Positions 12,746 through 48,772 of a stretch of DNA of 64,000 nt are shown here, one piece after another. Made by a program: the position numbers and the translations under genes. The notes below the pieces were generated by a model that was not told the DNA's origin, searched no databases, and saw only the letters and a program-made list of their open reading frames with translations. This stretch comes from an uncultured Actinomycetes bacterium. GTDB lineage: Bacteria; Actinomycetota; Thermoleophilia; UBA2241. The stretch is from positions 468,274 to 532,273 of the forward strand of contig CAWHYB010000007.1 in NCBI GenBank assembly GCA_963833555.1. The letters run 5' to 3'. Each line of letters begins with the position of its first letter. Position 1 is the stretch's first letter.

Positions 12746-12810
12746 AATGAGCCTCCAGCGGTCGCTTGTCCGCGCGATGCTACACCAGGCGCGGCAGGCC
12801 AGCCCGACCG

Positions 12811-12861
12811 GAGGAGGAGGCGGCGGCGGCGGCGGAGGCGCTGATCGCAGGGCTGGTGTTC
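12811..12861 (+). repeat. Isolated copy of the tyrosine-integrase 3'-end repeat
   Basis: GAGGAGGAGGCGGCG...GCGCTGATCGCAGGGCTGGTGTTC (EEEAAAAAEALIAGLVF) matches the copies at 33.2-35.1 kb. Confidence 0.8.
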
Positions 12862-12914
12862 AGAGGACCGGAGACGACCACGTCAGCCTGCTCCGGCAAG
12901 AGCCGGTCCACAGG

Positions 12915-31021: not shown

Positions 31022-31803
31022 TGTTCACGCGAGTGCTCGCGACGGAGCTACTCAAGCTGCGCCGCAGCAAGGTGACGTGGTTCTCATTGGCGGCGCTCTC
31101 GATGGGGCCGCTCGCCATCGGCTTGTTCATGTGGATCGTGCGCTCACCGGGCCGCGCCGCCCAGCTCGGCCTGCTGGGCAGCAAAGCGGACCTCTCTGGA
31201 CTGGCCGCGACCTGGCCCTCGTACTTCGCGACGCTCACCTTGGTGGTCGGCATGGGCGGGCTGCTGCTGCTCGCCTTCATCGTCGCCTATCTCTTTGCCC
31301 GTGAGTACGTCGAGGGCACCGCCAAGAACCTCCTGGCGCTGCCCGTGGGTCGTCACTGGTTCGTGCTCGCCAAACTCGTTGTGGCGGCGCTGTGGTGGGC
31401 TCTGCTCGTGGTGGCGGTGGTCGCCGAGACGTTCCTGATCGGGCTGGTCATGGCGCTGCCGGGCTTCTCGGTGGCCGTGGCCGAAAAGGGCGTGCACGAC
31501 GTCGTGATCGTAGCTGCCATCGTCTACCTGCTCTCACCGCTCGTCGCCTGGATCGCCACGCTCGGACGCGGCTACATGGCGCCGCTGGGCTTCGCGCTGG
31601 CGATGCTTGCGCTTGCCCAGGTGTTCGGCAAGACGGGCTGGGGGCCGTGGTTTCCCTGGTCGATCGTCGCCACGTTCGTCGGCTCGGTCGGCCAGCGGGT
31701 GACGGCAGTCACGCCCGGCAGCCTAGTCGTTGTCGTGCTGGCCTTCTTCGCGGGCATCGCGGCGACGATTGCGCAGCTGCGCTTCGCCGACAACACGCAG
31801 TAA
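31018..31803 (+). CDS. ABC-2 permease (BcrB/LanE-G-like)
   Basis: ELLKLRRS, FAREYVEGTAKNLL.LP, AKL, FPW; 6 TM. Confidence 0.88.
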   Translation: MMFTRVLATELLKLRRSKVTWFSLAALSMGPLAIGLFMWIVRSPGRAAQLGLLGSKADLSGLAATWPSYFATLTLVVGMGGLLLLAFIVAYLFAREYVEGTAKNLLALPVGRHWFVLAKLVVAALWWALLVVAVVAETFLIGLVMALPGFSVAVAEKGVHDVVIVAAIVYLLSPLVAWIATLGRGYMAPLGFALAMLALAQVFGKTGWGPWFPWSIVATFVGSVGQRVTAVTPGSLVVVVLAFFAGIAATIAQLRFADNTQ

Positions 31804-31851: not shown

Positions 31852-33033
31852 CTACTCGAGTTCTGTCCCCCCACGCGGGTCGGTCGGCAGCAAGGAGCAG
31901 ACGGCTTCGTCACTGCGCTCCTCGCCGCGCCGCACGAGCCCGTGTAGGGTGCCCTCGCGCCGAAAGCCGATCTTCGCGGCGACCCGAAGTGAAGCAGCGT
32001 TGCGCGTATCGGCGCCGAGATCGAGCCGCGCGAGACGGAGCCCCTCGAACGCCCACGTGACCGCGAGGCCGAGCGCGGCGGTCGCGACGCCCCTCCCGCG
32101 GGCGCCCGGGTTCACGCGGTAGCCGATCTCGCCGATGGCATGGGGCAGGTCGATGTCGATGTTGAGGCCGCCCAGCAGCATGTCACTCGCCGCGTCAGCG
32201 ACCGCAAAGTGGGCTTGGTGCGCCAGCCACGAGCCGGCGGCGAACTCGAGGAACCCGCGACCGGCCTCCACGCCGTAGGGCCAGGGCACGTGGCTGAGCC
32301 AGCGAACGGTCTCCTCGTCGATCGAGGCGACCAGCGTGTTGAGGTCGTCGGCGCGGTAGGGACGCAGGCGCAGACCGGGTGCCTCGAGGACCGGGAGCTC
32401 GGCTGGCAACTCGATCTCTGCAGTCGGTGGGCGCTCGTCCTGCGCCTCGACCTCCGCCTGCAAGACACCGTCCTCCCAGTCTGGACCAAGGAGCCAGGAG
32501 GTCATCGGCAGTGCGTAGAGGAGGTAGTCGGTGCGATGCTCGCCAACCTGCCGGTAGCTGCGATAGATGGCTTCGGGAAGGAACCCCGCGGCCTCTGCGA
32601 CTCCGCGTCCGCCGGGGTTGCCGACCGCCACGGCCGCCTCGAGGCGCTCGAGACCGAGATCATCGCGGGCCCAGGTCGCCATCAGTGCCAGTGCGTGCCT
32701 CGCGAAGCCGCGCCGCCGGTGCGCGCCGCCGACCCAGTAGGTGAAGTGACCCTGCGCCTCGGCGGGGTCGACGCCGCGCAGGCCGATCGCCCCGACCACC
32801 CGTCCCGTGGTCGCCTCGTCGACGGCCAAGTGGGCGTCGTGGCCGTCGCTCCAGGCAGCCTCGGCGTCACCGATCCAGGTGATGGCGTGTCCGAGGGTGT
32901 AGGGCGACGGCAGACTGAACCAGCGGGCGATGTCCGGCTCCCGGCAGCCGGCCATGAGCGCGGGTGCGTCGTCGATCTTCCAGGGACGCAGGACCACGAC
33001 ATCGTCGGCCAGGTGCGGAAGTCGCCGGCTCAT
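31852..33033 (-). CDS. Tandem-domain GNAT (RimJ/RimL-type) acetyltransferase
   Basis: Two repeats of LRP...YW/YR V...RxRGxA...N.xxxxVAxxxGF. Confidence 0.88.
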   Translation of the reverse strand: MSRRLPHLADDVVVLRPWKIDDAPALMAGCREPDIARWFSLPSPYTLGHAITWIGDAEAAWSDGHDAHLAVDEATTGRVVGAIGLRGVDPAEAQGHFTYWVGGAHRRRGFARHALALMATWARDDLGLERLEAAVAVGNPGGRGVAEAAGFLPEAIYRSYRQVGEHRTDYLLYALPMTSWLLGPDWEDGVLQAEVEAQDERPPTAEIELPAELPVLEAPGLRLRPYRADDLNTLVASIDEETVRWLSHVPWPYGVEAGRGFLEFAAGSWLAHQAHFAVADAASDMLLGGLNIDIDLPHAIGEIGYRVNPGARGRGVATAALGLAVTWAFEGLRLARLDLGADTRNAASLRVAAKIGFRREGTLHGLVRRGEERSDEAVCSLLPTDPRGGTELE

Positions 33034-33173
33034 CGCGTCCGGCAGTTGCTCGAGGTCCCTAACGGGCCGCCGTCCCGATTCCTCATCACTTTCGTCTCGT
33101 TCGTTGGTCTGCAGCCCCTCGGTGCGGCTTCCGACAGCTGCCCGAGCCGGGAGCTCGACTGACGCTCAATGTC

Positions 33174-33278
33174 GTCACCGCCCTCTCGACCACGCTCGGC
33201 GCCTATTCGGACGCCATCCCGGCGAAGCAAGTGGAGGCGGCGGCGCTGATCGCGGGGCTGGTGTTCGCGGGGAAGTAG
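33174..33278 (+). repeat. Tyrosine-integrase 3'-end remnant, copy A
   Basis: STTLGAYSDAIPAKQVEAAALIAGLVFAGK*. Confidence 0.85.
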
Positions 33279-33330
33279 CAGCTGCACGGGCTCCGTCCTT
33301 GCGGTCTTTGCGGTCCCCTCCCTTGCCGAC

Positions 33331-33957
33331 TCAGTCCAGCCAGGTCGTGGCGGCGGCGACGTCGAGCACCGGGTGCACCTCGGCCGCCTGCGCCGGCACG
33401 CCGATGGCGCAGCCGTTGAGGGCATACTCGGCGACCGGCAGGCCGAGGATGCGGCAGAAGCCGGGGTCGTCGCCCATCGTCGTGGTAGCGGAGACCAGAT
33501 GCATGCCGAGTCCGAGCGCGGTCGCCATCAGCCACATGTTCTCGAGCGCGTGAGCGAGGGACTGCTGCTGGACCGGCATCAGCGACCCATGCTCGGCGAC
33601 GACCACGTAGTAGGGGGCCGTGCCTACCCCGGGGATGCGCCCCTGAGAGACTGGTTCGAGCCGGGAGCGCAAGGGCGGCGGCGCCGTCCCGGCGGAGAGC
33701 ACCGCCGCCGCGTGCGCCTGGATCGCCGCCGCGGCGGCCGCCAGCGCCTCACTGCCCCGCGGCAGCACGAAGAAGCGCCGGTCGAGGGTGGCCCCCGGCG
33801 TCATCGCCGCCGCATAGGGGGCAGCGAGGCCGGCGCTGAGGATCTGCTCGAGGGCTTCAGGGGACGGCACCTCGCCTCCGAAGCTGCGCACCGAACGGCG
33901 CTCGCCGATGACCTGCGCGAGCGCCGCGACGCGCTCCTGGCGAAGAGTCCCTTCCAC
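33331..33957 (-). CDS. Nitroreductase-family protein
   Basis: RRSVRSF, LAAP, ENMWLMATALGLG; GAGGAGG RBS. Confidence 0.9.
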   Translation of the reverse strand: MEGTLRQERVAALAQVIGERRSVRSFGGEVPSPEALEQILSAGLAAPYAAAMTPGATLDRRFFVLPRGSEALAAAAAAIQAHAAAVLSAGTAPPPLRSRLEPVSQGRIPGVGTAPYYVVVAEHGSLMPVQQQSLAHALENMWLMATALGLGMHLVSATTTMGDDPGFCRILGLPVAEYALNGCAIGVPAQAAEVHPVLDVAAATTWLD

Positions 33958-34032
33958 GTCTGCCTCCTCCGCTTGCCTGCTGCCTTCTCCGGCACTCCGG
34001 AGGGCCGCGCCAGTATACCGGGAGGCGGCCGT

Positions 34033-34068
34033 CAGGCGGCGGCGTTGATCGCGGGGCTGGTGTTCGCC
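34033..34068 (+). repeat. Tyrosine-integrase 3'-end remnant, copy B
   Basis: CAGGCGGCGGCGTTGATCGCGGGGCTGGTGTTCGCC (QAAALIAGLVFA). Confidence 0.85.
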
Positions 34069-34139
34069 CAAGCTCCAACGGCGCCTACGCCTTTGGCCGC
34101 TGGGGTATGGTCTCGTCCATTCACAACCAGGAGGTCACC

Positions 34140-34346
34140 ATGCTCATGACCATTGCGACGCTCTCGGCCCACACGACGAGACGTATCTTCGAGGTCGGCA
34201 CCTTGCTCGGTTTGCTCGGCGGAGTTGCCCTTCTGGTCGGGGCGTTCCCCTTCTTTCGCAGGCCGGGTCAGATCATCGCCGGCATCCTGATCGCCGTGGG
34301 CTTCGCGCTCATGATCTACGCCGTGCACTTTGGCGGTCGCATCTAG
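34140..34346 (+). CDS. Small 2-TM membrane protein
   Basis: AGGAGG RBS, 68 aa, two hydrophobic helices. Confidence 0.7.
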   Translation: MLMTIATLSAHTTRRIFEVGTLLGLLGGVALLVGAFPFFRRPGQIIAGILIAVGFALMIYAVHFGGRI

Positions 34347-34406
34347 CGGATAGGACGGCCAGGCCGGAAGCTCCCGATCGTCGCGATCACAGAAGCATCC
34401 TGCATG

Positions 34407-34608
34407 CACGCCGTCCCGGCCATGCGGGAAGAGGCGGCGGCGCCGATCGCGCGACATTGGCGCTCCAGGCCGGCTCCACCCCAAAGTCGTCTCAAAACGC
34501 CTCGGCCACGCCACTGTCTCGATCACGCTCGACACCTGCTCGCATGCTATCCCTACCATGCAGGAGGAAGCGGCGGCGCTGATCGCCGGGTTCGTTTTCG
34601 CCGAATAA
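34407..34608 (+). repeat. Tyrosine-integrase 3'-end remnants, fused copies C and D
   Basis: C: HAVPAMREEAAAPIA (34407-34451). D: ATLALQAG/HPKVVSKRLGHATVSITLDTCSHAIPTMQEEAAALIAGFVFAE*, with catalytic Tyr changed to Cys and a 1-nt deletion. Confidence 0.9.
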
Positions 34609-34643
34609 TCCGGAATCGAGGCCGCGGCTCGACGTGCCTCGCC

Positions 34644-34838
34644 TCAGGGGACGTCCTTCATGCGCTCGTCCATCTGGCGCATCATCTCGGCCTTGTCCTG
34701 CTCGCTCATGGCAGCGAGCATCTCGGAGTGCGCCTCTTGGGCGTGTGCCAAGAGATCGTCTTTGACTTCCTGGGCCGAGGGTTTGGTCGAGACGTGGTCG
34801 CACTCCACTCCCATGTCTTTGCACGCAAGCGTTTTCAT
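34644..34838 (-). CDS. DUF1059-family small metal-binding protein
   Basis: MKTLACKDMGVECD...HAQEAH. Confidence 0.88.
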   Translation of the reverse strand: MKTLACKDMGVECDHVSTKPSAQEVKDDLLAHAQEAHSEMLAAMSEQDKAEMMRQMDERMKDVP

Positions 34839-34937
34839 GGCTGGCCTTTCCTCGCGTCTTCGGGACGATGTGTCCGCAGTGCTGTGCGTAGTACCCATAT
34901 GCCACAGTGCGGAGCCGACGCTCGCCGTTGCGCACAC

Positions 34938-35132
34938 CATGACCTGCCCCACACGCACGCCACCCTGACTCTGTAGGCCGGCATCCACCCCAAGGTCGTC
35001 TCCGAGCGCCTGGGCCACGCCACCGTCTCGATCACGCTCAGCACCTACTCGCACGCCATCCCGGCGATGCAGGAGGAGGCGGCGGCGCTGATCGCGGGGC
35101 TCGTGTTCGCGACGTACGAGGCGACGGGATGA
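34938..35132 (+). repeat. Tyrosine-integrase 3'-end remnant, copy E (longest)
   Basis: HDLPHTHATLTL*AGIHPKVVSERLGHATVSITLSTYSHAIPAMQEEAAALIAGLVFA: box II HxLRH (R changed to P), LGH...Y, internal stop. Confidence 0.92.
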
Positions 35133-35234
35133 TTCGAGAGCTCAACCGGCGGCAGGGCCGCGGCGCGTGGTGCAAATGCGAATGTGGATGCCGGACAGAT
35201 GCTGGCAGCAGATCCGAGATAGCATAGTTGCCAG

Positions 35235-35423
35235 ATGGCAGACTGGATCGTGCAGGCGAACCCCAAGATGTACGACGTTCACGCGGCGATCGAGAAGTCG
35301 CGCGCGGACTGGTGGAGCACGCCCAAGTATCGCAAGGAGATCTCCGTCGGCGATCGGACATGGCTCCAGATCGTCGGACCTACCTTCATCTCGACAGTCG
35401 AGGGCCATGACGAGAACGGCTGA
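35235..35423 (+). pseudogene. EVE/PUA-like domain 5' fragment
   Basis: WIVQANPKMYD...W...EISVGDRTWL; similarity is lost after about residue 49. Confidence 0.6.
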
Positions 35424-35478
35424 GATCAGCAGAGGCATAATCAGGCTGATCGCGCCGCCCGGTTGACCGGCCCTGTCG

Positions 35479-36237
35479 ATGTCCGTCACCGACTTCCTGA
35501 TCATCCTGCTCGCTGGCATCGGTGCCGGGACCATCAACACCATCGTCGGCTCCGGCTCGCTCATCACGTTCCCCACGCTGGTGGCACTCGGCTACCCGCC
35601 CCTGCTGGCCAACGTGTCCAACAACATCGGCCTCGTCCCCGGTTCGGCCTCGGGTATCCACGGCTACCGACGGGAGCTGGTGGGTCAGTCGAAACGTTTG
35701 CAGCGGCTGGTACCCGCGTCGATCATCGGCGCACTCACCGGGGCCACGCTGCTGCTGGTGCTACCGAGCAGCGTGTTCGGCAAGGTCGTCATCGTCCTCA
35801 TCGGGGTCGCGCTCGTACTCGTCGTGGTGCAGCCGACGCTGTCGCGGCGGCTCGTCGCTCGGCGTGCCGCACGTCCGGAAAGGCATCACGACGCGACGCT
35901 GGGCGTGCAGGTGCTGGTGGCACTGGCCGGCGTGTACGGCGGCTACTTCGGCGCCGCGCAAGGCATCATCCTCATCTCGATCCTCGGGATCATGATCGAC
36001 GACCACCTGCAGCGCCTCAACGCCTGCAAGAACGTACTGACCGGCTCGGTCAACGCGACGGCGGCGATCGTCTTCATCCTGACCACCGATGTTGACTGGA
36101 AGGTGGTTACAGCCATTGCCGTGGGTTCCACCATCGGCGGCCAGATCGGCGCCCGGTATGGCCGCCGGCTCAATCCCTTGGCCCTGCGCGCCGTCATCGT
36201 GATCGTCGGCCTTGTCGCGATCATCCGCCTGCTCTGA
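35479..36237 (+). CDS. Sulfite exporter TauE/SafE (TSUP) family
   Basis: AGTINTIVGSGSLITFPTL, ANVSN, GVYGGYFGAAQG, NACKN. Confidence 0.92.
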   Translation: MSVTDFLIILLAGIGAGTINTIVGSGSLITFPTLVALGYPPLLANVSNNIGLVPGSASGIHGYRRELVGQSKRLQRLVPASIIGALTGATLLLVLPSSVFGKVVIVLIGVALVLVVVQPTLSRRLVARRAARPERHHDATLGVQVLVALAGVYGGYFGAAQGIILISILGIMIDDHLQRLNACKNVLTGSVNATAAIVFILTTDVDWKVVTAIAVGSTIGGQIGARYGRRLNPLALRAVIVIVGLVAIIRLL

Positions 36238-36360
36238 CGCGTCGGCGGGAGAGCACAGGAGCGCCACCGAGTGATTGCTGACGGTGCGCCGAACGGGCAA
36301 CCAGCCGAATCGTTGCGCTGCCGAGGATGCCGATCGATGCCCGGCCGTGACGACGCCTCC

Positions 36361-36425
36361 TGCCGATTCTCGTCGGCAAATGTCGGCCGGAATTGCCGAC
36401 TCGGAAGTAAACGGCACGTCGGCAG
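36361..36425. mobile_element. Putative integrase arm-type binding repeats beside the att core
   Basis: GTCGGC at 36372, 36382 and 36418; inverted GCCGAC at 36395; directly 3' of the tRNA fragment. Confidence 0.5.
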
Positions 36426-36458
36426 GAGAATCGAAAATCGCCATATGCAGGCAGATCG

Positions 36459-36505
36459 TGGTGCCCCCGGCTGGAATCGAACCAGCGACACCAGGTTTAG
36501 GAAAC
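36459..36505 (-). tRNA. 3' half of tRNA-Arg(CCT), non-functional att remnant
   Basis: Minus strand GT-TTCCTAA-ACCTG-GTGTC-GCTGG-TTCGATT-CCAGC-CGGGGGC-A-CCA; D-arm and 5' acceptor strand absent. Confidence 0.85.
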
Positions 36506-36672
36506 ACGCAGCAGGCGTGACGGGCGGTGGTCAGCCGTGCGCGATTGTGCTGCACAGTCCAAGGTTCTGAGCGGGGTCGGTGGTCGGCTGTGCTTAGCCG
36601 TCTTGGCCGTGGTGAGGCGTCTCGTCGGCATCGCGTCGGCAGGCGAGACGCCGCTCGCCCACGTACAGTTGA

Positions 36673-37830
36673 TCAAGCTCCAGAGGAATCCTCGAAGTCC
36701 AGCTGCAGTTCGCGATACTCGCTTTGGCAGGGGTTCCCAGGAGCAAACCACATCTTCCTCATGGTCAGATCCATGATCAGAGAGCCGATGGTGGCCGAGC
36801 GCAGGAACTCCGTCTCATCCTCGTGCTCATGCGCACAGATGCCGTCCGGATGGTTGGCGTGATCGCGCAACACGTGCTGAAGCAGCGGCAGGGAGACTCT
36901 TCGCCCGCCCAACAACTCGTCCAGACGCTCCTGTCGAAAGAAGCTGTCGGGAATGAGGACCATACCCAAGTCGCGGGCCGGATCGGGCTTGCACTGAAAG
37001 TGGTTTGCGTGGGTGAACACGCCATGACGGGGCGCCTCGACTGTAACGCGCCCCGAATCGCCGGGGAGGCATTCGAGATTGGCGGCAAGGCCGTCGCCGC
37101 TCGCAAGCAGGTAGTTGGCCGATGACGAGCGGGTGGCCGAGACGACCTTGGCCAGAGCCTCACTCACGCTCCTGGACTCGAGGATGGCGCGCAGCACGAC
37201 GTGGTAAGGCACGCCGGGATCGCCTCTGTCCAGACTGCTGACGAGGGTGTTGGTGACGAGGCCCAGGCCATGTTCGTTCATGCCGACCTTGGCCAGCAGC
37301 CCAGCCTCCACCAGCGTCACGAACGCCGGACCGCTGTCTGGCTCCATTTCGAGCAGCAGCACCGTCTCGCGGGTGTGGGTCTTCCAGTCCCAATTCTGGG
37401 CAAGCAGCGTGTGACCGTCGCTCGTCGCTCTCGGCAAGGCAACGACGGCCGTGCATTCTCCATCGCCGGGCGCCACCACGTTGGGCTCGAGAGCCGAGAG
37501 CTCGGCAACTGGGCCGGCGTAGCGGAGCTCACTGCGCACGTTGAGCGTCACGATGTCCTCGAAGTCGCAGCCGGCGCCCTCCGCGATACCGGCCATCTCC
37601 TCAAGAAAGTCGGGACCGTAGGCCTCGATGGCCGGCGCATAGCGCATGGCGCGTCGCCGCGCCTCGGGCCAGTCGATGTGAGAGTAGTGGCTGAAGAGCG
37701 CTTCGTACGCGGCGAGCGATCTGTCGATCGCGGCGCTCGCCGCCCGGCCGTACTGGCGCCCTCGCTGCACGGGAGAGCCCACTGCGTGGACGCGAGGGAT
37801 TCCCTCGTCCCGCAAGGGCTTCCGGCTCAC
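36673..37830 (-). CDS. C45-family Ntn hydrolase/acyltransferase
   Basis: RGRQYG, LNVRSEL, GEC/TA nucleophile, AQNWDW, GMNEHGL, HANHF. Confidence 0.9.
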   Translation of the reverse strand: MSRKPLRDEGIPRVHAVGSPVQRGRQYGRAASAAIDRSLAAYEALFSHYSHIDWPEARRRAMRYAPAIEAYGPDFLEEMAGIAEGAGCDFEDIVTLNVRSELRYAGPVAELSALEPNVVAPGDGECTAVVALPRATSDGHTLLAQNWDWKTHTRETVLLLEMEPDSGPAFVTLVEAGLLAKVGMNEHGLGLVTNTLVSSLDRGDPGVPYHVVLRAILESRSVSEALAKVVSATRSSSANYLLASGDGLAANLECLPGDSGRVTVEAPRHGVFTHANHFQCKPDPARDLGMVLIPDSFFRQERLDELLGGRRVSLPLLQHVLRDHANHPDGICAHEHEDETEFLRSATIGSLIMDLTMRKMWFAPGNPCQSEYRELQLDFEDSSGA

Positions 37831-45004: not shown

Positions 45005-48000
45005 CTAGTCGCGGCGATGCACCCTGCGGGCCGAGTTGCGCAGGGGGGCATGCAGGGCCCGTACTCCCGAGCTCCCGCCGCCCGAGATCGTCACCTGACA
45101 GACGCGGTAGCCGACCTGCACGTTGCCGGCGGCGTCGATCGCGTAGTAGCGCAGGGTGTGGGAGTCTGCGCCGGCGATCGTGACCGGCAGGCCGGCGCCC
45201 CCCGGGTAGGGCGCCGACACCCAGGTCGAGCCGTCGAGCGAGTACCAGATGGTGGCCACCCCGGAGAAGGCGTCGGTCCCCAGGAGGTGCACGGTCACGG
45301 GACCTGTCTGTGGCGTGGACGCGGCGTCGTCCGAGGAGGTCGGCGCGGAGCTGTCGATCAGCACTGTGGCGCTCTCGGTCGCCTCGAGGTTACCGGCCGC
45401 GTCTGTGGAGCGATAGAGCACCCCATAGCTTCCCGAGCCTCCGCCCCGCTTCCAGGCGGCGAAGGGAACACTCGTGCCCGTCACCCAGGTGGTGCCACCG
45501 TCGGTCGAGTACTGGGTGGTGGCCGCACCGCCGCTCATGCCCGAGTGGCTGCCGTCGGCGCCCAGGGGGTCGATCGGGGTCAGCTGCAGGGTCCAGGGAC
45601 CGGGGTGCCAGGTGGCGACCCCGCCAGGGCTGGCGTTGTCGGTAGTCACCGGCGCCATGGCGTCGATCTTCACACCGATGGTCTGAACTTTCTCGACGTT
45701 GCCGGCATTGTCGGTCGAGCGGTAGGAGATGCTGTGGATGCCGTCGCCGCTCACCGCCACGGTGGTTCCGCTCGACCAGCTCGTGGCGCCGTCGACCCTG
45801 TACTGGGTGGAGGCCACTCCCGAGCCGCCGGGATCCGACGGCGTGAGGGTGACCGTCAAACCCGAGGCCTGCCAGTCGGCGGGGGCGTCATCGCTGGTGA
45901 CGGGCGCAGTCGTGTCCAGGGTGATCGAGTCAGCAAGGTCGAGCAGCTGTCCGGAGGCGTTACGATACTGGGCCTGGACGGTCTTGGAGCCGTCGCCGGC
46001 AGGCAGCGTCCACAGGGCCCGATCGGAGTAGGCCTGCCAGGAATCCCAACTAGCGCCCGAGTCGCGGAACCGCATCTGCGTAGCGCCGCTGACTGTCGAG
46101 TCGATCTCTGCCAGCCTCGAGTTCGTGGCGTCAGCGCCGCCAAGAAGCAGCATCGTACCCACTGGCCCAGGCCCTTGGTTGAGTAGCACGGAGACCGTGT
46201 TGGCATTGTAGTTTGCCGTCACCAAGTCGAGTCTGCCGTCGTTGTTGACGTCGCCGACGGCCACGCCGTAGGGGTTGGCGCCCGTGAGAAGGTCGGTCTT
46301 GGCGCCGAAACTGCCGGTGCCGGTTCCCAGCAGCACGCTGACTGTGTATGAGTTGGTGTTCGAGGTGACCAGGTCGAGTTTGCCATCGGTGTTGACGTCG
46401 CCGAGGGCGACGGAGATCGGATTGGAGTCGGTGGCGAAGTCGGTCTTGGCCGCGAAGCCGCCGTCGCCGTTGCCGAGCAGGACGCTGACAGTGTTGTCGT
46501 TGAAATTAGCCGTCGCCACGTCGAGATTGCCGTCGCTGTTGAGGTCACCGACGGCAATGGCGTACGGGTTGGCGCCGGTGACAAAGTCGCTCTTGGCAGC
46601 GAATCCGCCGTCGCCGTTGCCGAGCAGAACGCTGACAGTGTTGAGGCCGCGGTTGGCCGTCGCCACGTCGAGCCTGCCGTCGCCGTTGAAGTCGCCGACG
46701 GCCACACCGAACGGGTGGCTGCCGGTGGCGAAGTCGGTCTTGGCGGCGAAACCACCGCTGCCGTTGCCCAGCAGGACGCTGATCGTGCTGTCGCCCCAGT
46801 TGGCCGTCGCCACGTCGAGCGTGCCGTCGCCGTTGAAGTCGCCGAGAGCGACCAGACAGGGGGCTGTGCCGGTGGCGAAGTCGGTCTTGGCGGCGAAGCC
46901 GCCGTCGCCGTTGCCCAGCAACACGCTGATCGTGGCGGAGTGTTGTTGGCCGTCACCAGGTCGGGCTTGCCATCGCCGTTGAAGATCGCCGACCGCCACG
47001 ACGTAGGGGTTGGCGCCGGTTGGCGTAGTCGGTCTTGGCGACGAAGCCGCCATTACCCTTGCCCAGCAAGGACGCTGACCGTGCTGGCGGCGATGTTCGC
47101 CGTCGCCAGGTCGAGCTTGCCGTCGCCGTTGAAGTCGCCGGACGGCGACCGACCATCCTGGCCCCGCGCCGGTGGCGAACTCGGATGGGGCGACGAACCC
47201 TCCGGCGCCGTTCCCCAACAGCACGCTGGCCGTGGCAGCGTTGAAGTTCGCCGTCGCCAAGTCGAGCTTGCCGTCGCCGTTCAGGTCGGCGAGGGCCACG
47301 GACGCTGGAACGCTGCCCACGGGGAAGTCGGTATTGGCGGCGAAGCTACCGGCGCCATTGCCCAGCAGCACGCTGACGCTGCCGTGGTAATCGGAGTCCG
47401 ACGTCACCAGGTCGAGCTTGCCGTCGCCGTTGACGTCGCCTACGGCGACCGAACTCGGCTCCGTCCCGGTGGCGAAGCCGGCCCTGGCGGCGAACGTCCC
47501 GTCGCCGTGGCCCAGAAACACGCTGACGGTGCCGCTCGAGTATTGGTCGGCGGTCACGATGTCGAGCTTGCCGTCGCGATTGAAGTCGCCCACAGCCACG
47601 GAATCCGGGTTGATGCCCGCGGTGAGATCCACGGCGTCGGTGAAGCCGCCGGCGCCGTCGCCGAGGAACACGCTGACGGTGCCGGAGCCGTTGTTCATCA
47701 CCGCCAGATCCTTCTTGCCGTCGCGGTTGAAGTCGCCTTCGGCCACGGACACCGGGTAGCGGCCGGTGGCGAAGTCGGTCTTGGCGGCGAAGCTGCCGTC
47801 GCCGTGGCCCAGCAGCACGCTCATGGTGCCGGAGTAATCGCGGTTCGCCGTCACCAGGTCGAGGCTGCCGTCGCCGTTGACATCGCCGACGGCGACCGAC
47901 CACGGGCTCGTTCCGGTCGCGAAGTCCGTCTTGGCGGCGAAGCCGCCGGCGCCATTGCCCAACAGGACGCTGACCGTGCTGGCGTCGTTCGTCGTCACCA

Positions 48001-48316
48001 GGTCGAGCTTGCCGTCGCCGTTGAAGTCGCTCACGGCCACGCTGCGCGGACCCGAGCCGGTCGCGAAGTCGGTCTTGGCCGCGAAGCCGCCGGCGCCGTC
48101 TCCCAGCAGCACGCTGACCGTACTGAAGGCTGCGTTCGCCGTTACCATGTCTGGCTTGCCGTCGCCGTTGAAGTCGGCCACGGCCACGCAGTACGGGTTG
48201 CCGCCGACCTTGGGCGGTTGCCCCGAGAAGGCGAGCGCCCACGCGCTCGATGGAACAGCGCAGACGGCGGCCAGGCAGATCGCAAGCGCGAGCAGAGCGA
48301 CGAGACGACGAGACAT
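45005..48316 (-). CDS. Secreted FG-GAP/VCBS-repeat protein (14 repeats) with C-terminal Ig-like domains
   Basis: Signal peptide; 14 x VAVGDFNGDGKLDLVT, two of them in a compensated frameshift at about 46.95-47.15 kb; D..APVT/YRSTD.AGN.E modules. Confidence 0.9.
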   Translation of the reverse strand: MSRRLVALLALAICLAAVCAVPSSAWALAFSGQPPKVGGNPYCVAVADFNGDGKPDMVTANAAFSTVSVLLGDGAGGFAAKTDFATGSGPRSVAVSDFNGDGKLDLVTTNDASTVSVLLGNGAGGFAAKTDFATGTSPWSVAVGDVNGDGSLDLVTANRDYSGTMSVLLGHGDGSFAAKTDFATGRYPVSVAEGDFNRDGKKDLAVMNNGSGTVSVFLGDGAGGFTDAVDLTAGINPDSVAVGDFNRDGKLDIVTADQYSSGTVSVFLGHGDGTFAARAGFATGTEPSSVAVGDVNGDGKLDLVTSDSDYHGSVSVLLGNGAGSFAANTDFPVGSVPASVALADLNGDGKLDLATANFNAATASVLLGNGAGGFVAPSEFATGAGPGWSVAVRRLQRRRQARPGDGEHRRQHGQRPCWARVMAASSPRPTTPTGANPYVVAVGDLQRRWQARPGDGQQHSATISVLLGNGDGGFAAKTDFATGTAPCLVALGDFNGDGTLDVATANWGDSTISVLLGNGSGGFAAKTDFATGSHPFGVAVGDFNGDGRLDVATANRGLNTVSVLLGNGDGGFAAKSDFVTGANPYAIAVGDLNSDGNLDVATANFNDNTVSVLLGNGDGGFAAKTDFATDSNPISVALGDVNTDGKLDLVTSNTNSYTVSVLLGTGTGSFGAKTDLLTGANPYGVAVGDVNNDGRLDLVTANYNANTVSVLLNQGPGPVGTMLLLGGADATNSRLAEIDSTVSGATQMRFRDSGASWDSWQAYSDRALWTLPAGDGSKTVQAQYRNASGQLLDLADSITLDTTAPVTSDDAPADWQASGLTVTLTPSDPGGSGVASTQYRVDGATSWSSGTTVAVSGDGIHSISYRSTDNAGNVEKVQTIGVKIDAMAPVTTDNASPGGVATWHPGPWTLQLTPIDPLGADGSHSGMSGGAATTQYSTDGGTTWVTGTSVPFAAWKRGGGSGSYGVLYRSTDAAGNLEATESATVLIDSSAPTSSDDAASTPQTGPVTVHLLGTDAFSGVATIWYSLDGSTWVSAPYPGGAGLPVTIAGADSHTLRYYAIDAAGNVQVGYRVCQVTISGGGSSGVRALHAPLRNSARRVHRRD

Positions 48317-48772
48317 GACTCCCCCTAACCGACGGACGCAACGCCCTGGTGCCTTGATGATACAGCTACGAAGAGGCGAAGCTAGGACCGGGTCACCCGT
48401 CACGGGTTCCCGTGTTGTGTCTCGGAGCGCTAATTGCGGCGGCTGCAGGGAGTTATGCGGGGTGGCCGACAGCCTGCCGACGAGCCATGCGACAATCTTG
48501 AGCGTTGTGTGGGCTCGCGAAAGAGTCACGGAGCAGTCGCCGCCATCTCGCCGGCTGGGTCATTGAGTCCAAGGGCGATCTCGGCGAGCCCGCCCGCCGC
48601 CACTTCTGCCCCAGCGCGGCCGGCGACCCGCGCTCGCGACCGCCACGACCGCGTCCCCCTAGTAGTGTCATAGAGGACTTTCAGTTCGCATGCATGACAC
48701 GACGGCCCTCTGGGAATCTGCGGGACACACGTCGTCACGAGGAAACGGCGACACGGCAGCAGAGGTAGGGTC

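Follow-up and report, generated by a model that had tools for sequence, protein, structure and literature searches.

Truncated 3′ ends of a tyrosine-integrase gene separate single-gene modules in tRNA-Arg(CCT) islands of Thermoleophilia-like actinobacteria

Integrase tails, a displaced tRNA half and cargo genes in the window

The DNA analysed here is a stretch of 64,000 nucleotides (nt) from an uncultured actinobacterium of the class Thermoleophilia (assembly GCA_963833555.1, contig CAWHYB010000007.1, positions 468,274 to 532,273), referred to below as the window. The 3′ end of one tyrosine-integrase gene (int) is present in five plus-strand copies at 33181-35132, with single small genes between them. 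We call these copies tails and designate them A to E. The array is followed by a displaced 3′ half of tRNA-Arg(CCT), which forms part of an attachment-site (att) repeat. Arrays of the same kind are present in related genomes, and the truncated copies of int found there have the same polarity. The features of the window are collected in Table 1, where model positions refer to a profile of the full-length integrase gene with a length of 1248. Other genomes, contigs and loci are denoted by G, C and L numbers, respectively.

The original prediction, made on the letters of this region, had described five integrase 3′ copies of the same orientation, each decayed independently, with ragged 5′ ends and with a joint loss of similarity among A, B, D and E. 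All of this was confirmed. Similarity among the four tails is lost directly after GT(G/T)TTCGC, and the 5′ edges are ragged both in the window and in the copies of relatives. Tail A carries eight changes in its first 45 nt and none in its last 35 nt. The catalytic residues of D and E are mutated, as had been stated: in D the catalytic Tyr is replaced by Cys (DTYSH to DTCSH) and 1 nt is deleted, while E contains an HDLPH box and an in-frame TAG. A repeat search of the window recovered a 34-nt core family with five members (100, 97, 71, 85 and 97% identity) as well as longer tail families of 71 and 127 nt. A 35-mer taken from the tail core gave three matches at no more than three mismatches, compared to none in 100 shuffles. 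With the sixth, isolated remnant at 12810-12862, the island zone may extend much further left than the array.

No intact integrase of the tail family was found in the window, in agreement with the original prediction, and none in the whole source genome, a 52%-complete metagenome-assembled genome (MAG) of nine contigs, in which only Xer-like genes and an integron integrase, all tail-less, were detected. The latter (C2:668994-670055, or L022:1084-2145) is a true integron integrase, with a score of 471.8 bits on TIGR02249 at a cut-off of 265, and is unusual for an actinobacterial MAG.

The array had been predicted to end at a tRNA att site. The att repeat is indeed present; a whole tRNA is absent, and only the displaced 3′ half remains. 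ARAGORN detected no whole tRNA at 36458-36505, and an Rfam scan of 32500-37500 gave nothing except a chance-level match at E 0.97. The unit made up of flank, tRNA half and arm, ~300 nt in length, is repeated at 93% identity at the end of the contig, ~28 kb on (C7:532460-532643), and the contig ends inside this second repeat. Seven such units were found in 80 kb of the related genome G024, four in the related genome G004 and two in the window's contig. Repeated units of this kind are a signature of repeated integration into tRNA-Arg(CCT). No intact tRNA-Arg(CCT) was found in the source genome (G000), whose contig ends inside the second repeat.

The ~28 kb from 36506 to the contig end lie between two att units and contain neither an integrase nor a tail. 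It thus represents a recombinase-free island segment between att repeats, with genes of, among others, the AAT/peptidase C45-like, polysaccharide deacetylase and ABC binding-protein types. ARAGORN also called a 92-nt tRNA-Arg(acg) at 47177-47268 (minus strand). Since this call lies inside a 1174-codon open reading frame (ORF) at 45005-48529 composed of ~147-nt tandem repeats, it is probably false.

The names nitroreductase, DUF1059 and TSUP that had been given to genes of the array are backed by matches to PF00881, PF06348 and PF01925. The label "EVE fragment" for the ORF at 35235-35423 received no such backing, with no Pfam match at E ≤0.1. Among 88 other genomes of the family, homologues of the nitroreductase were found in 13, of the DUF1059 protein in 5, none of them near a tail, and of the TauE/TSUP protein in 18. 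The TauE/TSUP gene adjoins the same tRNA or att in two loci (L167 and L170).

Table 1. Positions of integrase tails, att components and genes in the window
Feature	Coordinates	Strand	Remarks
Tail A	33181-33278	+	~97 nt of integrase 3′ end; model 1151-1247; native end VFA-G-K-TAG; 5′ part decayed, last 35 nt intact
Tail B	34033-34068	+	final 35 nt only, without native stop; model 1205-1239
Tail C	34375-34450	+	decayed; ends ~15 nt short of the common 3′ limit, joined directly to D; model 1148-1224
Tail D	34451-34608	+	~155 nt; model 1087-1244; native-type end VFA-E-TAA
Tail E	34938-35132	+	~195 nt from HDL(R>P)H on; model 1066-1242; end lengthened to VFATYEATG*
Sixth, isolated remnant of integrase tail	12810-12862	+	31/33 bases identical to the 35-mer core; expanded GGC/GAG triplet run; ~20 kb upstream of array
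Displaced 3′ half of tRNA-Arg(CCT), anticodon loop to CCA	36458-36505	-	48/48 bases identical to the intact tRNA of L167; aligned to the intact G004 tRNA
Conserved flank downstream of tRNA, P′ side of att repeat	36338-36457	-	~120 nt; att model 1-303 at 36338-36642
Conserved arm, other side of att repeat, start of next island segment	36506-36642	.	~135 nt
Double GNAT acetyltransferase gene, left neighbour of tail A	31852-33033	-	PF13302, E 4e-47, two stretches
Nitroreductase gene, convergent with tail A	33331-33960	-	PF00881, E 3e-18; stop ~50 nt from tail
79-amino-acid (aa) ORF with hydrophobic stretches, putative small membrane protein	34107-34346	+	GC content at third codon positions (GC3) 0.85; weak DUF7134 match below cut-off
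DUF1059 gene, convergent with tail D	34644-34841	-	PF06348, E 2e-6
62-aa ORF	35235-35423	+	no Pfam match at E ≤0.1
TauE/SafE (TSUP) membrane transporter gene, last cargo before att site	35479-36237	+	PF01925, E 2e-40

Tails and intact integrases in related genomes

Matches to the tail peptide were found in 25 of 41 related genomes. At E ≤1e-8, 62 of 89 family genomes contained matches, and 13 of them had at least 10. Two whole arrays were examined in stretches of 100 kb from G004 and 80 kb from G024. The G004 array has 26 tail ends, all on one strand, over ~76 kb, and stops 4.3 kb before an intact, facing tRNA-Arg(CCT); in its dense zones the tails are typically spaced by 0.7-1.4 kb. Ten tail ends are present in G024. 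Pfam matches were obtained for 17 of 20 module ORFs of G004, which are small stand-alone enzymes; the cargo families include glyoxalase, nitroreductase, SnoaL, YCII, cupin, epimerase, ferredoxin, HTH, dehydrogenase, arginase and FAD oxidase. Such cargo resembles environmental integron cassettes. By a count made on the map, 17 of the 24 G004 genes that follow a tail (~70%) are convergent with it, their stop codon being ~50 nt away.

Two peculiarities of these arrays should be mentioned. At 31627-31776 of the G004 array (working coordinates; within L059) in front of one tail stands its own 5′ portion in inverted orientation, which creates a palindromic joint. It is the sole inverted joint seen in the G004 and G024 arrays; one inverted tail was seen in L133. 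The G024 arrays (L061-L064) contain two pairs of 1.3-1.6 kb segments that are >99% identical (12447-13770/53596-54917 and 62893-64501/75314-76921), one pair being inverted, and these segments may be insertion sequences.

To describe the polarity of integrase remnants we used a set composed of the window, the two whole arrays and 30 loci, the loci having been sampled with the tail as bait. A profile search of this set revealed 24 full-length genes and 74 partial copies. The original prediction had called for counting the copies and finding the intact parent; the arrays turned out to be much longer in relatives, and it is there that the full-length genes are located. The 3′ end is kept in 68 of the 74 partial copies, with window copy C included by threshold. 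Of the remaining six, three belong to tails interrupted by an internal deletion or duplication, of which they form the front part, one is cut off at a contig end and two do not include the end. None of the 74 is an N-terminal or middle piece of the integrase, and a few long partial copies in short loci were possibly cut by the end of the locus. When the region around the gene start (-90 to +150) was modelled, the 24 full genes and nothing else matched at E ≤1, that is, no start or promoter remnants. Tail lengths range from 35 to ~1083 nt of a 1245-nt gene, with a median of 120 nt; 27 tails measure at most 100 nt, 24 measure 101-200 nt, 7 measure 201-300 nt and 10 are longer, 51 of the 68 thus being no longer than 200 nt. 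A remnant of the att unit within 250 nt upstream was found for 2 of 66 tails. No shared motifs were detected upstream of tails, except in a few shared modules.

The full-length genes account for the common 3′ limit of the tails. All 24 end with ...EEAAALIAGLVFA (GLVFA), mostly followed by two variable codons and a stop. The stop stands exactly two codons after VFA in 14 of the 24 full genes and in 36 of the 68 tails. The 3′ breakpoint common to the tails is the point where the integrase ORF itself stops, and a shared breakpoint of this origin needs no recombination site. On this point the original prediction, which had suggested that the integrase 3′ end may be a recombination site and had itself named a breakpoint explained by the integrase stop codon among the observations that would tell against this, is not supported. 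Synonymous conservation of the 3′ stretch is not raised in intact genes (identity of 0.66-0.69 versus 0.53-0.77 in the rest of the gene). Neither the window tails nor public contigs revealed conserved sequence beyond the stop, and the last 35 nt of the tail contain no dyad symmetry or second binding half-site. A likeness of the tail end to the tRNA core was considered and discarded: the two share only the 7-mer CTGGTGT, for which we estimate a ~14% chance at random.

One of the full-length relatives (L061:5640-6938) contains PF00589 (E 2e-21), the SAM-like N-terminal domain PF14659 and a zinc-ribbon insert. The integrase is at most 33% identical to phage integrases, and the closest full-length genes (best 16 loci) belong to uncultured Thermoleophilia or Actinomycetota MAGs. 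Many of the full-length genes are preceded by a ~60-nt conserved motif with an inverted repeat, agacgcgcgtct, just before the ATG (e.g. L068:9911-10000 and L074:5297-5386); this motif could serve as an operator or promoter. The five ORFs that precede one intact int, compared without a family scan, had no counterparts near other integrase genes except for two single-gene matches; in this one element, conserved genes for replication or transfer were not found next to int.

Wherever an att is located downstream of a full-length gene, int points at it (11 of 11 cases), the closest distances being 292 nt (L070) and 486 nt (L082). Sixteen tails lie between these 11 genes and their next att. Thirteen full integrases have 3 kb or more of sequence on either side; tails within 3 kb were found downstream of seven of them (10 tails) and upstream of one (1 tail). 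These position counts come from few genomes and are indicative only. Tails between an intact integrase gene and att are the opposite of the order that serial tRNA integration followed by ageing predicts.

Divergence was compared by mismatches to the consensus. The ratio of tails to full genes is 0.84, 0.71 and 0.81 for the three 30-nt bins nearest the 3′ end and ~1.0 deeper in the gene. Tails are thus not more diverged than intact genes, in agreement with tails being either young or renewed through exchange with such genes.

Tail sequences are also common outside the genomes compared. Of 15 public sequencing runs, none contained more than 0.10 of the sampled window words, and window parts that they leave uncovered are uninformative. 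Contigs of three peat/soil runs pile onto the tails and the tRNA half, with a summed depth of hundreds to thousands versus 0-50 on most cargo. In each run 8-10 contigs leave the window sequence right after 35110/35111, where they continue with two codons, TAG and then anything. The piled-up contigs come from many organisms; they demonstrate that the tail is a common repeat in peat/soil habitats and nothing further. Contig joints that connect a tail end to 36435/36447, or a tail to a tail, were considered as excision products and dismissed: their sides are short (21-37 nt), and we read them as repeat mappings from other organisms.

Module mosaics and the origin of the tails

Gene order around the nitroreductase is common to the window and two loci of relatives, L148 and L146, at 77-79% identity. 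In L148 (the same sequence as L077 and counted once) a full integrase is followed by 53 nt, the nitroreductase, a decayed 35-nt tail, a membrane-protein gene and a 67-nt tail. L146 contains a 308-nt tail in place of the full integrase and is otherwise alike. In the window the 97-nt tail A, the nitroreductase and tail B are followed by DNA unrelated to L148 and L146. Since the full integrase of L148 occupies the place of tail A, A is a remnant of the integrase that preceded the nitroreductase. Tail B, being present in three genomes, is an old shared tail, and the junction with the next module is located exactly at its end: it lacks the native stop in all three genomes, yet different DNA follows it. 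The membrane-protein module of L148 and L146 occurs again in L066 and L067, preceded by different neighbours; the 5′ edge of its tail is the same there.

Similar mosaics were detected elsewhere. Four duplicated pieces of G004 start or end at a tail; one of them, 97% identical over 739 nt, stops exactly at TTCGC. A 3-kb stretch of cargo in G024 is 98.9% identical to one in L133, but the tails of the two measure 226 and 67 nt, respectively, and the DNA beyond differs. At the cargo/tail joint of these two tails of unequal length there is an in-frame ATG. Deletions starting at the int start codon were considered for this joint and dropped, as the joint is unlike int starts. Comparison of cargo order between relatives, a check proposed with the original prediction, has thus revealed differing orders, with the same modules behind different neighbours. 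Of the inference drawn at that time, the part that treats tails as recombination junctions of gene-sized modules is borne out by the mosaics; the part that makes them an integrase-recognised, integron-like site is unproven.

We propose, with a probability of about 0.5, that islands at tRNA-Arg collect gene modules and rearrange them through recombination at the tails, in which homology is probably the driving force. Phage-type tyrosine integrases of Thermoleophilia-like actinobacteria would insert islands into the 3′ half of the tRNA, with the integrase gene facing att. Small accessory genes are stacked between the integrase stop codon and att, each with a 5′-truncated tail after it, and the tails would act as portable direct repeats at which modules are lost and swapped. 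We infer that modules may also be gained there. In a gain event, a single crossover would join the tail of a circular or duplicated gene-plus-tail piece to the 3′ end of an intact integrase gene; the piece would be inserted just behind the gene, the tail would be duplicated and the gene would stay whole. The crossover would most simply be driven by homology, of the RecA or the short-homology type, possibly with help from the integrase. Because only the 3′ end of the gene can take such a crossover unbroken, this scheme would explain why 3′ tails alone have spread. It would also account for the polarity and position of the tails, for the lack of att remnants, for the native distance to the convergent gene and for tail edges that travel. 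The window would then be the decayed end of a gene-module array in an island hot spot at tRNA-Arg(CCT), with the intact integrase lost.

Several observations weigh against this proposal. No unambiguous gain event was seen, and every difference in context could stem from tail-by-tail deletions in larger ancestral arrays. With a median of 120 nt and ~85-97% likeness, the tails are ill suited to RecA-type recombination. Their conservation gradient is weak, and tail B, well kept in the window, is decayed at the corresponding site of L148 and L146 (~70% alike). Indels are present in 28 of 66 tails. In indel-free tails the ratio of non-synonymous to synonymous changes is 0.96 in the last 12 codons and 0.68 upstream, versus 0.56 and 0.49 in full genes; this higher ratio indicates relaxed constraint on the protein. 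Nine of 12 nitroreductase loci and all five other DUF1059 loci are tail-less. Finally, many of the loci come from few related genomes, so that the counts are not independent.

The same arrays could be products of passive decay, in which whole islands integrate serially at tRNA-Arg(CCT), deletions leave inert tails and later deletions produce the mosaics. This is a serious possibility, if in our view a somewhat unlikely one. Tandem integration is evident from the repeated att units of G024, G004 and the window's contig, the frameshifts, stops and catalytic changes of the tails agree with it, and so does a common 3′ end that is the gene's own. There are precedents as well, in the reports on Prochlorococcus islands and on tandem integrative and conjugative elements of actinomycetes (AICEs), discussed below. 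However, random deletions should leave N-terminal and middle pieces as well as att remnants, whereas pieces of the former kind and start or promoter remnants are absent and att remnants are limited to 2 of 66 tails. Passive decay is also at odds with the shortness of most tails relative to the gene, with their location downstream of intact genes, where newer arrivals are expected, with a divergence no greater than that of intact genes, and with the movement of the same truncated tail edge and the gene it belongs with into different surroundings. Even the plainest reading does not account for the remnants' strict polarity.

A more active role of the integrase has also to be weighed. In its broader form, the integrase 3′ end would be a working attachment site, behind which circles of gene plus tail are captured next to an active int by the integrase or by a short-homology pathway and from which they can leave again; we consider this doubtful. 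The narrower form, in which the tail is an att-like site and the integrase itself excises circular cassettes and inserts them at the int end without attC hairpins, appears quite improbable. Polarity, position behind intact integrases, a cassette size of 0.7-1.4 kb and the type of cargo fit such capture, as do the G004 duplicate ending exactly at TTCGC, the stop-less tail B followed by different DNA in three genomes, and the last 35 nt, which are the best-kept part of several decayed tails. Yet these 35 nt have neither a dyad nor a second half-site, nothing is conserved after the stop, and the synonymous identity of the stretch is within the range of the gene. The boundaries form no hairpins, the tails have ragged 5′ edges, one shared 7-mer is all that the tail end has in common with the tRNA core, and the integrase already has a classical att, composed of the tRNA core and its arms.

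It is hardly tenable that tails are kept as expressed C-terminal integrase peptides which interfere with related integrases and so stabilise cargo or exclude islands. Several tails do occupy open frames that run over 57-60 codons and have a high GC3, and the in-frame ATG at the cargo/tail joint in G024 and L133 would provide a start; open frames are, however, the default in GC-rich former coding DNA, many tails contain indels, some are as short as 35 nt, and the non-synonymous to synonymous ratio rises toward 1. The least credible explanation is an assembly artefact, a dispersed repeat wrongly chained in an incomplete MAG whose contig ends inside an att repeat: although the tail is highly repeated in peat/soil metagenomes, the same architecture is present in dozens of genomes, the order of the nitroreductase module is common to three of them at 77-79% identity, and one 151-nt contig spans the C/D joint at 100% identity, a weak check, as this contig may come from the source sample.

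Relation to known systems and implications

Integrons also consist of arrays of gene-sized modules, mostly small enzymes, with a repeated element between them and a linked tyrosine recombinase gene, and their modules too are found in varied contexts. The arrays described here are different in that the repeat is conserved coding sequence rather than a folded attC, and the integrase is not IntI: the full-length relative L061:5640-6938 scores 41.5 bits on TIGR02249, compared to a cut-off of 265. As the original prediction had expected, no attC-like hairpins were detected; eight folds (four boundaries, both strands) gave z values of -1.29 to +1.67 relative to shuffles, the attC model of IntegronFinder not having been run. 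A repeat search of the window revealed no inverted repeat at module boundaries. Furthermore, the array is located 3′ of the integrase gene on the same strand, while an integron array is divergent from intI at attI; and integron cassettes are mostly co-oriented behind a common promoter, while here ~70% of genes are convergent with the preceding tail.

The islands share with known tRNA-targeting islands a phage-type tyrosine integrase, tRNA 3′ repeats with an intact tRNA at one end (in G004) and an integrase gene that faces att. Cis-mobilizable elements (CIMEs) of streptococcal integrative and conjugative elements are units of cargo without int, arranged in tandem with an integrase-bearing element and bounded by true att sites. 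The tandem arrangement of int-less cargo with an int-bearing element is common to CIMEs and our islands, but modules here are bounded by integrase gene ends. The pdif modules of Acinetobacter plasmids, which rely on XerC/XerD, have 28-bp dyad sites of alternating orientation. They resemble the modules described here as gene units, recognised through comparison, that occur in varied contexts with a short repeated boundary and lack a recombinase of their own, and differ from them in that tails are 35-300 nt long, all direct and without a dyad. Phage 21 and e14 leave a displaced copy of the icd 3′ end, and in SSV-type integration attP lies inside int, so that the gene is split. Repeated gene 3′ ends with a constant 3′ limit are found in these cases as well, but there the 5′ limit is fixed at the crossover; moreover, SSV integration leaves an N-terminal fragment at the other end, whereas no N-terminal piece was detected here and the 5′ edges are ragged.

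The closest parallels are islands with serial integration at tRNA genes. The tycheposon preprint describes tRNA-linked Prochlorococcus islands with fragmented integrases and partial tRNAs, and the AICE review describes tandem AICEs at Arg-tRNA with attP directly downstream of int. Serial tRNA integration with fragmented integrases and tandem actinomycete elements at Arg-tRNA are known, and our islands share with them an integrase that targets the tRNA 3′ half, partial tRNA repeats, fragmented integrases and an attP downstream of int. The difference is that remnants here are exclusively 3′ tails, far more numerous than the tRNA repeats, and that tails lie between an intact int and att and bound single-gene modules. 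In the literature searched, the scope of which excluded subscription journals and supplements, we found no prior account of exclusively 3′ integrase tails, either bounding single-gene modules or between an intact int and att.

Arrays in this actinobacterial lineage, a common one in soil and peat, comprise up to about thirty single-gene modules. The polarity of the remnants bears on how genomic islands decay. There is also a practical side for metagenomics, as the tails are highly repeated in peat/soil metagenomes and the window's contig ends inside an att repeat. If the integrase 3′ end were a working attachment site, tRNA islands of Thermoleophilia would carry an integron-like capture platform that lacks attC. 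To our knowledge, integrons are rare in this phylum and are the only well-understood system in which single genes are stacked at a recombinase-linked site, and the origin of their cassettes is still unsolved. Active tails would offer a simple route of cassette formation, in which a gene is combined with a piece of the neighbouring integrase gene, and would represent a second, independent way of building mobile gene collections.

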